The notes beneath the pieces are model-generated. The model was not told where the DNA came from and ran no database searches. It saw only the letters and a program-made list of their open reading frames with translations. Both the position numbers and the translations under genes were made by a program. From contig JBJMOW010000001.1 of the NCBI GenBank assembly GCA_045803545.1, forward strand, positions 32,001 through 96,000: a stretch of DNA of 64,000 nucleotides, given 5' to 3'. Source of the DNA: Gemmatimonadaceae bacterium. Lineage in GTDB: Bacteria; Gemmatimonadota; Gemmatimonadetes; Gemmatimonadales; Gemmatimonadaceae. Positions 6,824-10,475 of this stretch are shown piece after piece. Each line of letters starts with the position of its first letter. Position 1 is the stretch's first letter.

Positions 6824-7582
6824 GTGCTCAAGGCGCCCTGCTATATCGTCTCGGACGCGCACATCGGCGTCGCCAGTCCACAAATCGAGCGATCCTTTGT
6901 CTCGTTTCTTCGCGGTCTGGAGGGCGAGGCGAAGTCTTTGATTATCAACGGCGATTTGTTCGACTTCTGGTTCGAGTGGAAGTCGGTCATCCCCCGTCGC
7001 AGCTTTCGCACCCTCGCCGCACTCGCTGAGCTCCGTGACAGCGGGATGGATATCCTCTGGGTCGCCGGCAATCACGATTGCTGGGGCGGAGAAGTTTTGC
7101 GGCAAGACGTCGGCGTCGACTACATCATCGGACCGTGGGAAGGAACCATTGCCGGCTGGCGACTGCGGGTCGAGCACGGCGACGGTTTGCGCGACAAGGA
7201 AGACCGCGGCTATCGAATTATTCGGCCCATCATGCGCAATCAATGGGCAATCCGGGCGTTCAGGCTCCTTCACCCCGATTGGTCCACTGGGCTCGCGCAC
7301 GGCAGCTCGAACGCGAGCCGGAACTATCGGGCGCGTGATGAAGGTCGCGGGCTGAGAGCGCACGCCGAGCAGGAGCTCGAACGATGCAAGGAGCTCGACA
7401 TCCTGGTGTACGGTCACTCGCATGTTGCCGCGCTCGAGCGGATGGACAATGGCCGTGTCTTCGCCAATGCCGGCTCGTGGCTCGATGCTCCTACATTTCT
7501 GCGCCTCACCGACGAAGCGCTGGAGCTGCGTGAATGGGATGGATCAGCCGAGGGTGCGTGTCTCAACTCGGTCAATCGCTGA
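6824..7582 (+). CDS. lpxH: UDP-2,3-diacylglucosamine diphosphatase (LpxH-like metallophosphoesterase)
   Basis: SDAH, GDLFDFW, GNHD, HGD and GHSH motifs. Confidence 0.85.
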   Translation: MLKAPCYIVSDAHIGVASPQIERSFVSFLRGLEGEAKSLIINGDLFDFWFEWKSVIPRRSFRTLAALAELRDSGMDILWVAGNHDCWGGEVLRQDVGVDYIIGPWEGTIAGWRLRVEHGDGLRDKEDRGYRIIRPIMRNQWAIRAFRLLHPDWSTGLAHGSSNASRNYRARDEGRGLRAHAEQELERCKELDILVYGHSHVAALERMDNGRVFANAGSWLDAPTFLRLTDEALELREWDGSAEGACLNSVNR

Positions 7583-8347
7583 GCCGAGGAAACGTTGCCC
7601 GAGCGCAAGAAACGTCTCGGGCGCGTCTGACGAAATGAAACGGTATTGAGCGGTGTTCGCCGAGTCATTGGCGATGTCATTCTCACGCAACCTGTCACCT
7701 GTTTCGCGTGCGGTCTCCTGAGCGCTGTCGATCAGCCTGACGTCACGACCGACGACGTTGCCAATGACATCCTTCATCAGCGGGTAGTGGGTGCAGCCCA
7801 GAACGAGTGTATCCACTTCCGCCGTGACCATCGGTGCCAGGTAATTGCGCGCGATGGCTCGGGTCGGCTCGGTATCAACCCAACCTTCTTCGATCAGCGG
7901 CACGAACAGAGCACATGCTTGAGCAACCAGGTTCACATCGGGAAGCAGCTTGCGGATTGCCTTCTCGTAGGCGCCGCTGCGAATCGTACCGGCGGTACCG
8001 ATCACACCCACCTTTTGCTTTCTCGTCGCGGCGACCGCGGCACGTGCGCCGGGTCCGATCACGCCGATGATCGGAAAATCGTACTCCTCGCGCAACGCGG
8101 GAAGCGCATGGGCGGTGGCAGTGTTGCAAGCGACGACGAGCGCTTTGACTCCTTCTTCCTTTAGGAAGGAGACGATCTCGCGGCTGTATCGAAGTACTGT
8201 ATCGGGACTCTTCGGTCCATACGGCACGCGCGCGGTATCACCGAAGTAGATGATGCTCTCGTTCGGCAGTTGATGGATTAGCTCGCGCACCACGGTGAGC
8301 CCACCGATGCCAGAGTCGAAAACGCCGATCGGCGCTGGGTTGCTCAT
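7544..8347 (-). CDS. murI: Glutamate racemase
   Basis: FDSGIGGLTV, VACNTA, LGCTHYP. Confidence 0.97.
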   Translation of the reverse strand: MSNPAPIGVFDSGIGGLTVVRELIHQLPNESIIYFGDTARVPYGPKSPDTVLRYSREIVSFLKEEGVKALVVACNTATAHALPALREEYDFPIIGVIGPGARAAVAATRKQKVGVIGTAGTIRSGAYEKAIRKLLPDVNLVAQACALFVPLIEEGWVDTEPTRAIARNYLAPMVTAEVDTLVLGCTHYPLMKDVIGNVVGRDVRLIDSAQETARETGDRLRENDIANDSANTAQYRFISSDAPETFLALGQRFLGSAIDRVETRTLG

Positions 8348-8883
8348 CGCCAGCTCACCGACCCGAAGACGCCAACCGCACGCGACTGCGCGATCACACC
8401 GATGTTGGTGCGAAAGTCCCAGAGGTTCGCCGCGACATACGCGTCCGCGCCCGAAAAGAGATGATTGAAGATGATTGCGGCGATCCAGTCTTCGTAGTGG
8501 GTGCGACGCGCGTCCACGCGATCGTCAGTGAACCGGCTCGCAATGTAGGTGTCGGGAATTGGCAGTCCCGTTTTCGGATCGACTTGGGCGAGGCCCGTCT
8601 CGGGATCTACCTTGTAGGTGGCAACGACACTGTCACCACGTAAGGTTTTTGCTTCCTGCAGATCGATCGCGGACTTTCTCGCCATTCCGATGGAGCCAAC
8701 CTCGATCACGGCGAACAGCATTGCTGCCTTGCTCCGCCCGAAAACCGTTTGCGCATATCCTGGCAACAACAAGGAGCTGAGAAAAGCTCGTCGCGGACTA
8801 AGCGGCGGTTTAGGTGTATCGATGTTTTGCTTTGGCAGCGCGACTCCAGCCCGCGCGCTGTCGCGCTGCTGCGAGCTCGCCAT
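8344..8883 (-). CDS. Hypothetical membrane/exported protein; true start may be GTG 8979 inside tRNA-Sec
   Basis: SPRRAFLSSLLLPGYAQ ... SGADAYVAANL pattern; stop overlaps the murI start (ATGA). Confidence 0.7.
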   Translation of the reverse strand: MASSQQRDSARAGVALPKQNIDTPKPPLSPRRAFLSSLLLPGYAQTVFGRSKAAMLFAVIEVGSIGMARKSAIDLQEAKTLRGDSVVATYKVDPETGLAQVDPKTGLPIPDTYIASRFTDDRVDARRTHYEDWIAAIIFNHLFSGADAYVAANLWDFRTNIGVIAQSRAVGVFGSVSWR

Positions 8884-8927
8884 GGCAGGAGAGCCGAGTG
8901 CGATCGTGAGCGCGAGAAGGAACGGGA

Positions 8928-9024
8928 TGGCGGGAGAGTGTGGGAATCGAACCCACCCGGCCCTACGACGTAGGGTCACAGTGATTTTGAAGATCACGGA
9001 AGCCACCAGGCCCCATCCACCCCC
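8928..9024 (-). tRNA. selC: tRNA-Sec (UCA), 97 nt, CCA encoded
   Basis: 8-nt acceptor strands GGGGGTGG/ACTCTCCC, 6-bp D-stem with TGGT loop, GTGAT-CTTCAAA-ATCAC anticodon arm, long variable arm CCCTAC/GTAGGG, GTGGG-TTCGATT-CCCAC T-arm, G discriminator; immediately downstream of selD. Confidence 0.95.
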
Positions 9025-9031
9025 ATTCCAG

Positions 9032-10075
9032 TCAGACGACTTCGATCGCAACGTCTCCCCGATGAATGACCTCCCCCACGAGTACCGCGCCTTCGACGCG
9101 TGAAAGATAGTCACCAGCGCGACCCGGACTCATGGCGACGAGCAGACCGCCCGAGGTCTGCGGGTCGAACAACAGCGCACGTTCGACGTCGTCGCCGGCG
9201 TTCCAGTGAACGAGCTCTCGCAGATACTCACCGTTCCGCTTTCCACCGTCGGTGACGATGCCCGACGTTGCCGCTTCGCGCGCGCCGGGCAGTACTGGAA
9301 CGGCTGCGAGATCAATCGTCAGGGTGACCTTGCTCGCCCGCGCGATGTGCGAGGCATGGCCAAGCAATCCGAAACCAGTGATGTCCGTTGCGCACCGCGA
9401 GCCAATCGCGAGCGCAGCTCGACTCGCTTTGCCATTGAGCTCTTTCATGCGCTCCAGCATCACGCGCTGTGATTCCGCCGCAAGCTTACCTCGCTTGGAC
9501 GCCGTCGCGAGAATTCCGTTTCCGATTGGTTTGGTGAGCACGAGTTTGTCACCAGCTTTCGCACCGGCATTGGTGAGAAGAAAATCAGGGTGTGCGCGTC
9601 CAGTGACGGCCAGGCCGTACTTCAGCTCAGTGTCAATGACTGTATGCCCGCCAACGATGAGCCCACCGGCTTCGTGCACTTTCTCCTGCCCGCCCGCAAG
9701 AATTGCGGTCAGTACGTCCAGCGGCAGATCCCTGGTTGGAAACGCGACGATGTTCAACGCAGTAAGCGGCTGTCCGCCCATTGCGTAGACATCGGACAAT
9801 GCATTCGCAGCGGCGACCTGGCCGAAATCGAACGGGTCGTCCACAATGGGCGCGAAAAAATCCACCGTCTGCACGAGGGCAAGATCGTCGGACAGTCGAA
9901 AGACCCCGGCGTCGTCGAAGGTCTCGCGACCTACGAGCAGGCGTGGATCGTTCTTTACTGGGAGCGCGGCCAGCGCGCGGGAAAGGTCACCCGGACCCAT
10001 TTTTGACGCTCAACCCGCGCACTGCGCGAATTCGGTCAACCGAAACAACTCCTCGCGTGTGTGGGATGCGTTCAT
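9032..10075 (-). CDS. selD: Selenide, water dikinase, selenocysteine-containing (UGA at 10010-10012), 347 aa
   Basis: ATG 10075 reads MNASHTREELFRLTEFAQCAG(U)ASKMGPGDL in frame with the ORF-track protein; DDAGV, QTVDFF, ANALSDVYAMGG, TDITGFGLLGH, DPQTSGGLL. Confidence 0.95.
9976..10009 (-). promoter_or_regulatory. Bacterial SECIS-like hairpin in selD
   Basis: After UGA: AA(U)GGGUC-CGGGU-GACCUUU; the G-containing apical loop starts 16 nt after the UGA. Confidence 0.7.
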
Positions 10076-10085
10076 GTCGGAACCG

Positions 10086-10475
10086 CTATTTGCTTCCCAA
10101 AGCGGCGATGGCGTCGATCTCTACCATGGCACCTCTGGGAAGCGCCGTCACCTGCACCGTCGAGCGGGCGGGGCGCGCGTCACCGAGCCACTTTCCATAA
10201 ACCTCGTTCACCGTCGGGAAGTTCGAGAGGTCGTGAAGATAGACCGTCGTTTTGACGACGTCGTTCCACGTGACACCGGCGGAGCGCAAAACTTCCTGCA
10301 GGTTCTGCATTACGCGCTCCGTCTGCTCGACGATCCCCCCTTCAACCATTTTGCCGCTGGTCGGATCCAGCGGAATCTGTCCGGCCGTAAAAAGGAAACC
10401 ATTGGCGACGATGCCCTGCGAGTACGGACCGATCGCCGACGGCGCTTTCTCAGTACTGATCTTCTTCGAAGGCAT
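10086..10475 (-). CDS. ridA: RidA/YjgF family enamine deaminase
   Basis: APSAIGPYSQG, AGQIP, PARSTVQVTALPRGAMVEID. Confidence 0.92.
   Translation of the reverse strand: MPSKKISTEKAPSAIGPYSQGIVANGFLFTAGQIPLDPTSGKMVEGGIVEQTERVMQNLQEVLRSAGVTWNDVVKTTVYLHDLSNFPTVNEVYGKWLGDARPARSTVQVTALPRGAMVEIDAIAALGSK

Follow-up and report, generated by a model that had tools for sequence, protein, structure and literature searches.

Genes for selenocysteine tRNA (tRNA-Sec, selC) that are nested in or overlap the 3' end of selB were predicted by bioinformatics in Alphaproteobacteria, some Gammaproteobacteria and Nitrospirae, as described in Mukai 2021 (PMC8124441). The same paper mentions a termite-symbiont lineage in which tRNA-Sec ends 2 nucleotides (nt) before the selA start, which is adjacency rather than overlap, and it cites a tRNA-Lys inside cox1 of the Armadillidium vulgare mitochondrion. 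Here, a 64,000-nt stretch of DNA from a Gemmatimonadaceae bacterium (GenBank contig JBJMOW010000001.1, positions 32,001 to 96,000; hereafter the window) was analysed, in which selC directly precedes an open reading frame (ORF) for a DUF5683-like protein. The start codon and the n-region of the signal peptide of this protein probably lie within selC, in which case the 3' half or more of a working tRNA-Sec gene would double as protein code. All genes of the locus are on the minus strand, and the coordinates given are positions in the window.

The locus shares several properties with the selB-selC overlap presented in PMC8124441. A same-strand ORF runs through tRNA-Sec, and the conservation of the tRNA carries over to the residues that it encodes. 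The arrangement is kept across taxa and is sometimes lost, tRNA processing and translation are proposed as alternatives, and both cases are known from bioinformatics alone. The position of the tRNA is different. According to the same paper, the tRNA of the selB-selC overlap lies at the 3' end of selB, where it gives a C-terminal extension to a protein of the selenocysteine pathway, and the stop codon overlaps the start of the next ORF. In contrast, the tRNA here lies at the 5' end of the unrelated gene for a DUF5683-like envelope protein, to which it would supply the start codon and the n-region. Also unlike selB-selC, the hydrophobic region (h-region) and the cleavage site of the signal peptide are present here without a start of their own, which is internal evidence for a translated overlap. 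The tRNA-Lys/cox1 case, in the terms in which PMC8124441 cites it, is similar in that both genes are on the same strand and share bases, and that one transcript serves one product only. However, the mitochondrial case is one of extreme compaction, whereas the present one is found in a free-living bacterium with a 3.7-Mb genome, 60% G+C and ordinary spacers elsewhere. A full-text literature search, which covered few subscription journals, did not find this overlap of tRNA-Sec with a 5' gene end described, and only Mukai 2021 was related to it.

The gene order on the minus strand is selD, a 7-nt gap, selC, the DUF5683-like ORF and murI. The tRNA-Sec gene (anticodon UCA, encoded CCA) occupies 8928..9024. 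The frame of the ORF is free of stops from 9114 to 8344, spanning the whole tRNA and 80 nt of selD. At the junction, the codon ATC (Ile) starts at 8928, which is the last A of CCA, and the frame then reads I-PFLLALTIALGSPA-M(8883)-A-SSQQRDSARAG. The predicted h- and c-regions of the signal peptide (IPFLLALTIALGSPAMA) occupy 8878..8928, with PFLLALTIALG as the h-region and A-M-A before SSQQ. The first-pass annotation had stated that the frame is open through the whole tRNA, and that the h-region and cleavage site start at the CCA end, upstream of the ATG at 8883; both observations hold. A signal peptidase I site is predicted after AMA (8878|8877) from the -3/-1 rule and the conserved QQRDSARAG of the relatives, and the mature protein (SSQQRDSARAG...PPLSPRRAFLSSLLLPGYAQ...) would be encoded by 8344..8877, with the stop codon TGA at 8346-8344. 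The segment has the h-region of about 10-15 residues and the small neutral residues at -1 and -3 of a Sec-type signal peptide. A positively charged n-region exists only when translation starts in or before selC (MTLRRRAGWVRFPHSPA from 8979).

Whether this segment is protein-coding was judged from related loci, of which 30 came from 41 related genomes and 77 from species-representative genomes (96 distinct loci after duplicate removal). The 77 loci were from metagenome-assembled genomes of Gemmatimonadaceae, Gemmatimonadales or Gemmatimonadota, save L071 (unidentified bacterium) and L103 (uncultured Gemmatimonas sp.). A tRNA-Sec gene was found just upstream on the same strand in 78 of the 96 loci. 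The other 18 had no tRNA-Sec in the available sequence, and several of them end at a contig edge (L019, L023, L070, L071). No stop separated the tRNA and the ORF in 75 of the 78 loci, and a stop was present in 3. In 68 of the 96 loci, the frame was open into selC and was directly followed by a hydrophobic segment of 14–24 codons ending at a QxxDS motif, while 7 further open-frame loci had no QxxDS within 45 codons. The segment was most often 20 codons long (41 of 68), and the length differences were all multiples of 3; the outlier L107 had 42 codons and its own start.

The segments were highly diverse in sequence and kept their hydrophobic character. Among 67 related segments, the second codon position was T in 42%, C in 43% and A in only 3%. 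The best 10-residue Kyte-Doolittle window had a median of 2.61, and 64 of the 67 segments were above the 95th percentile of a control made of random in-frame pieces of the long open frames of the genome. The residue before the first Q (-1) was Ala in 57, Ser in 4, Thr in 4 and Gly in 2, and residue -3 was Ala, Ser or Gly in 58. At the protein level, the tRNA-coded ...GWVRFP(H/P)SPA preceded a variable hydrophobic stretch in 115 of the 120 best metagenome matches. Because the segment is hydrophobic, preserves the frame and ends in A-x-A across relatives, it is best read as translated in the ORF frame, as the predicted h- and c-regions of a signal peptide.

These data bear directly on the ATG at 8881..8883. 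If the gene started there, the protein would have no signal peptide, and the hydrophobic stretch would be an untranslated leader. This codon is the first ATG after the tRNA, a call of 179 amino acids (aa) from it exists (P0007), and a start there would keep the tRNA and the coding sequence apart, in line with common annotation practice. However, the 45 nt upstream of it are coding-like in all the respects described above, and, of the 67 segments, 30 have a stop in one of the two other frames and 4 in the remaining one. The ATG lies two residues ahead of the predicted cleavage site (at -2) and is absent in most relatives, including L002, whose protein is 90% identical to that of the window and which has no ATG, GTG or TTG between the tRNA and the conserved domain. 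A start at ATG 8883 is thus most improbable.

More generally, 25 of 68 loci had no ATG, GTG or TTG between the tRNA and QxxDS, and in a further 27 the earliest canonical start after the tRNA left fewer than 15 residues, so that an upstream start would be obligatory in 25 to 52 of these loci. Orthologues that are not joined to selC in this way have a start of their own. In L015, which is from the same genus, a stop and a 31-nt spacer follow selC, and then ATG-MNKRFFVIALAVLLPSSAAVLSA begins with the n-region MNKR. L022 has a TTG start and an n-region containing RR, and own starts with basic n-regions were also found in L095 (MRHRRGIARARRACFATLVSLLAAAPVLA) and L106 (MRLRLFTALLTAALAIPSPGRLRA). The N-termini in the group of L095, L096, L106, L091 and L103 include MRHRRG..., MRLRLF..., MNLSERF... 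and VRRRLS.... Overall, the independent-start orthologues carry 2–6 basic residues ahead of the h-region, which points to signal peptides with charged n-regions as a property of the family. Since no conserved start exists after the tRNA while the unlinked orthologues keep a start and an n-region, the start in the overlap loci would be inside or just before selC. The proposal of the first-pass annotation that the 3' part of selC also encodes the N-terminus is backed by this comparison, and so are its expectations of a signal peptide in orthologues (L015, L022, L095, L106, L091) and of a stop-free frame across selC in relatives.

From 9026 down to the ATG at 8883, the ORF frame offers no other canonical start (ATG, GTG or TTG) than three GTGs within the tRNA, at 9004..9006 in the D-loop, at 8995..8997 in the 5' strand of the anticodon stem and at 8977..8979 at the junction of the anticodon stem and the variable arm. 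The D-loop GTG was in frame in 69 of 69 overlap loci (67 at the exact distance and 2 with offset ARAGORN ends), is invariant in the tRNA alignment, and is often picked by gene callers (MASVIFK...). It is the only canonical candidate common to all overlap loci of the clade. The equivalent of GTG 8997 was present in 59 of the 69 loci (57 at the exact distance and 2 offset). GTG 8979, at alignment columns 46–48, had been favoured in the first-pass annotation. It is indeed the nearest upstream in-frame start and would yield the basic n-region, but it is not a common candidate, because 60 of the 69 loci have it and the other 9 have GCG, unlike GTG 9006. The conservation of the candidate codons does not identify the start used, since they are held in place by constraints on the tRNA or on selD.

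A search for Shine-Dalgarno sites before each GTG was set aside as evidence in either direction, as the genome hardly uses such sites. Among 519 constrained starts, a heuristic set that may include false ORFs, GGAG or GAGG was found upstream of 13% versus 6–7% in controls (GGAGG upstream of 4.6% and GGAG of 12.7%), and GTG or TTG made up 43% of the starts. A GTG without a Shine-Dalgarno site is therefore normal here, since the use of such sites is rare and GTG and TTG starts are frequent.

A second family of the same order, in which 29 loci were examined and L126, from an unpublished genome, was left out, also has the h-region abutting selC, in other reading frames. The in-frame candidate start is a GTG in the T-arm in L110 and L121, and an ATG in the D-arm in L132 (reverse strand). 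L122 (1293–1500) has no canonical start inside the tRNA; its in-frame GTG and ATG are 30 and 27 nt upstream, so that the whole tRNA appears to be nested in the ORF. In L112, L115, L124 and L138, the gene has its own start after the tRNA. Because the arrangement recurs in different frames, it argues that reading through selC may have been tolerated repeatedly in this order.

A fully nested tRNA, as predicted for selB-selC, can also be considered for the window itself, with a start at the in-frame TTG (9049..9051) inside the 3' end of selD, 25 nt upstream of the ARAGORN tRNA start. This would be a sub-variant of the overlap with selC and not a contradiction of it. The frame is open as far as 9114, GGGGAG precedes the TTG, most relatives have an in-frame TTG at this distance (some upstream in-frame start is present in 64 of the 69 overlap loci), and L122 has an upstream ATG or GTG only. 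However, the other 5 loci (L011, L013, L066, L068 and L084) have no such start, and in L084 a stop lies directly before the tRNA. The GGAG is only 3 nt from the TTG, and the TTG is fixed by the conserved C-terminus of selD (..GEVAIEV), which makes its conservation uninformative. A start at this TTG is considered very unlikely, and a start within selC is preferred.

The overlap state was placed on a murI tree (FastTree, 79 rows). It occupied a large and deep clade, together with L093 and L098 in a sister group. The own-start locus L015 was nested among overlap loci, which suggests that it is a secondary escape from the overlap. The tree requires several state changes, and no number of origins is claimed.

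An open frame through a tRNA was rejected as evidence by itself. Stop-free sense frames through the 50 predicted tRNAs of the genome numbered 58 of 150, so the open frame alone is at the chance level, and the case rests on the comparative data. Stop avoidance in the variable loop was dropped as a measure, because in this frame the bases of the loop belong to CNN and NGT codons. None of these can be a stop, which leaves the measure without power. Four other ARAGORN-called tRNAs of the genome also have long open frames downstream. After a tRNA-Val (contig C4:258765-258840) there is an ORF of about 870 codons whose frame is also open through the tRNA. This ORF has its own ATG 34 nt past the tRNA and a complete signal peptide (MKVSKLGPLLLLAGLFLSPRLTAAQ), which is a normal arrangement, unlike selC. 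For tRNA-Gly and tRNA-Pro, canonical starts are 18 and 54 nt after the tRNA. A 99-nt 'tRNA-Arg' (contig C6, reverse strand 333365-333463) was discarded as probably a false ARAGORN call inside an SMC-like gene; the frame around it contains a Walker-A-like motif (GPNGCGKSN) and was judged SMC-like by eye.

selC itself has the properties of an intact gene. ARAGORN called the tRNA at 9026..8928 on the minus strand with anticodon TCA, and Rfam RF01852 matched 9024..8932 over the full model (1–91) with 64.9 bits versus a gathering score of 47. The tRNA was taken as 9024..8928 because the two extra 5' bases of ARAGORN vary among relatives. It is the only tRNA-Sec among the 50 predicted tRNAs of the 3.7-Mb assembly, which is 93% complete. 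In 27 distinct relatives, compensatory double changes were found at 10 of the 30 predicted pairs of the cloverleaf, and these pairing-preserving changes are located in the D, anticodon and variable stems. selA (SelA, 477.6 bits) and selB (SelB wing domain, 57.1 bits, on contig C6) were found elsewhere in the genome.

The upstream gene selD (9032..10075, stop TGA 9034-9032) encodes selenophosphate synthetase, with Pfam AIRS and AIRS_C on 9032-10000, and is itself a selenoprotein gene. Its in-frame TGA for selenocysteine is at 10012-10010, codon 22, in the catalytic Cys/Sec position (...FAQCAG-TGA-ASKMGPGDL). Among 62 related loci, the catalytic codon is TGA in 50 and a Cys codon (TGC or TGT) in 12, and the selD stop is 5 nt before the ARAGORN tRNA start in 45. 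The ORF table shortens selD to ATG 10000, and the true start was read as ATG 10075. The uniqueness of selC, the presence of selA and selB, the Sec codon in selD and the compensatory changes all indicate that selC is a live gene, and both readings of the overlap DNA, as tRNA and as protein, would be under selection.

With no terminator-like site between selC and the ORF, only 7 nt separating the end of selD from the tRNA, and an overlap of the ORF with murI, the four genes look like one transcript. Within 7400-10400, 3 terminator-like sites were found versus 2.9 expected, none of them between selC and the ORF. A search of RNA runs matched only small shares of the query (0.05–0.17). RNA-library contigs (Logan, four runs) crossed the tRNA-ORF junction at 8804-9006 (203 nt, 6 differences) and at 8911-9029 with 102 further bases, and another crossed the selD-tRNA junction (8932-9070). 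Such contigs are what uncut precursors would give and lend slight support to a shared transcript. No weight was given to the contig end at 9006, the D-loop GTG, as contig ends reflect assembly.

Several points weigh against a start within selC. The relatives are not independent, as most of the 68 loci are in one clade. The conserved GTGs in the tRNA and the tRNA-coded peptide follow from tRNA constraint, which is uninformative on the use of a start, and the GTGs would be buried in the folded tRNA. The fold of 8860-9080 was no more stable than shuffles (z -0.58), and no alternative structure that frees the GTGs was found in it. No sigma-70-like promoter was found in 7400-10400 versus 0.7 expected, although the promoters of this phylum may differ. 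The RNA-library contigs may be DNA carry-over and show no 5' ends, strand or level. A downstream start is possible in some species, because in 16 of the 68 loci a canonical start soon after the tRNA leaves at least 15 residues and could yield a signal peptide that lacks a charged n-region. The ATG of L007, 3 nt past the tRNA, is an example.

The last point also favours another explanation, that translation starts at a near-cognate codon (CTG, ATC, ATT or ACG) early in the segment, possibly on RNA left after 3' processing of the tRNA, with no part of selC translated. The Leu and Ile codons CTG, ATC and ATT occur frequently in the segment, many loci have ATC or ATT as the codon across the tRNA end, and in a few relatives (L055, L007) a true ATG is at the tRNA end or 3 nt after it. 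However, no position has a conserved near-cognate codon, and the straddling codon encodes Thr, Ile, Ser, Val or Met. Moreover, the basic residues kept by independent-start orthologues make it appear that the family needs an n-region, which this start would not provide. In bacteria, near-cognate codons are poor starts, and a leaderless message requires an AUG or GUG at its 5' end. Near-cognate initiation was therefore regarded as unlikely, and a start within selC remains the probable reading.

With a start within selC, the following mechanism could be proposed. In the overlap clade, the spacer between selC and the DUF5683-like gene would have been lost, which puts the beginning of the h-region at the last base of CCA. 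The start codon, together with the basic n-region, would be within selC or, less likely, just upstream of it. Ribosomes would start on selD-selC-ORF-murI RNA whose selC is unfolded or has not been cut by the tRNA-processing enzymes. Maturation of the tRNA would remove the start codon from the downstream message, and processing and translation would compete. Each RNA molecule would then yield either mature tRNA-Sec or the message for the DUF5683-like protein and the coupled murI.

A more elaborate version, in which the transcript works as a selenium-sensing switch, is speculative and was given little credence. selD needs Sec-tRNA for its own UGA at codon 22, and only ribosomes that pass this UGA would reach the selD stop. 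Ribosomes at that stop could keep the acceptor strand open, and translation could restart 26 nt further on, at the D-loop GTG. With ample Sec-tRNA, the transcript would be used for the envelope protein and MurI and not for further tRNA-Sec. When it is scarce, early drop-off of ribosomes would let selC fold and be processed, and tRNA-Sec would be replenished.

The downstream partner, murI (glutamate racemase, 7544..8347; Pfam Asp_Glu_race, E 2.4e-27; taken from the ORF table), starts with an ATG that shares the sequence ATGA (8347-8344) with the stop of the ORF, an arrangement suggestive of translational coupling. Nearly all related loci retain the DUF5683-like gene and murI as a pair, whether or not selC or selD is there. 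The window protein scored 18.1–19.5 bits against Pfam PF18935 (DUF5683), below the cut-off of 26.7, and is not a member. Its orthologues scored 21.0, 21.5, 25.5 and 27.0 bits, of which only L106 (27.0) passes. The protein is thus named DUF5683-like, and it is probably an exported or membrane protein with a predicted Sec-type signal peptide. Relatives of it numbered 1146 at E<=0.001. Public gene calls disagree on the start, with lengths of 179, 185–192, 215–229 and 236–252 aa among the proteins P0001-P0120, and the NCBI record P0095, labelled partial, starts a single residue past the D-loop GTG. When the first ATG is called as the start, the predicted signal peptide is lost, and the protein would be mislocalised.

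Overlaps between tRNA and protein genes in bacteria are usually treated as annotation errors, and the one published class, selC in selB, rests on open frames alone. The protein side of the present overlap carries its own test: in dozens of species, and in different reading frames, a conserved predicted export signal lacks a start of its own. The overlap would therefore have to be translated for the protein to work. The arrangement is apparently present in a large group of soil Gemmatimonadaceae, and a 5'-end overlap with an unrelated gene is new relative to selB-selC. The locus is a natural system for the division of a transcript between tRNA maturation and translation. As murI is apparently coupled to the ORF, an essential cell-wall enzyme may be expressed in part by way of a tRNA gene. 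The switch, if true, would make both tRNA-Sec homeostasis and some of the murI expression dependent on the selenium supply.

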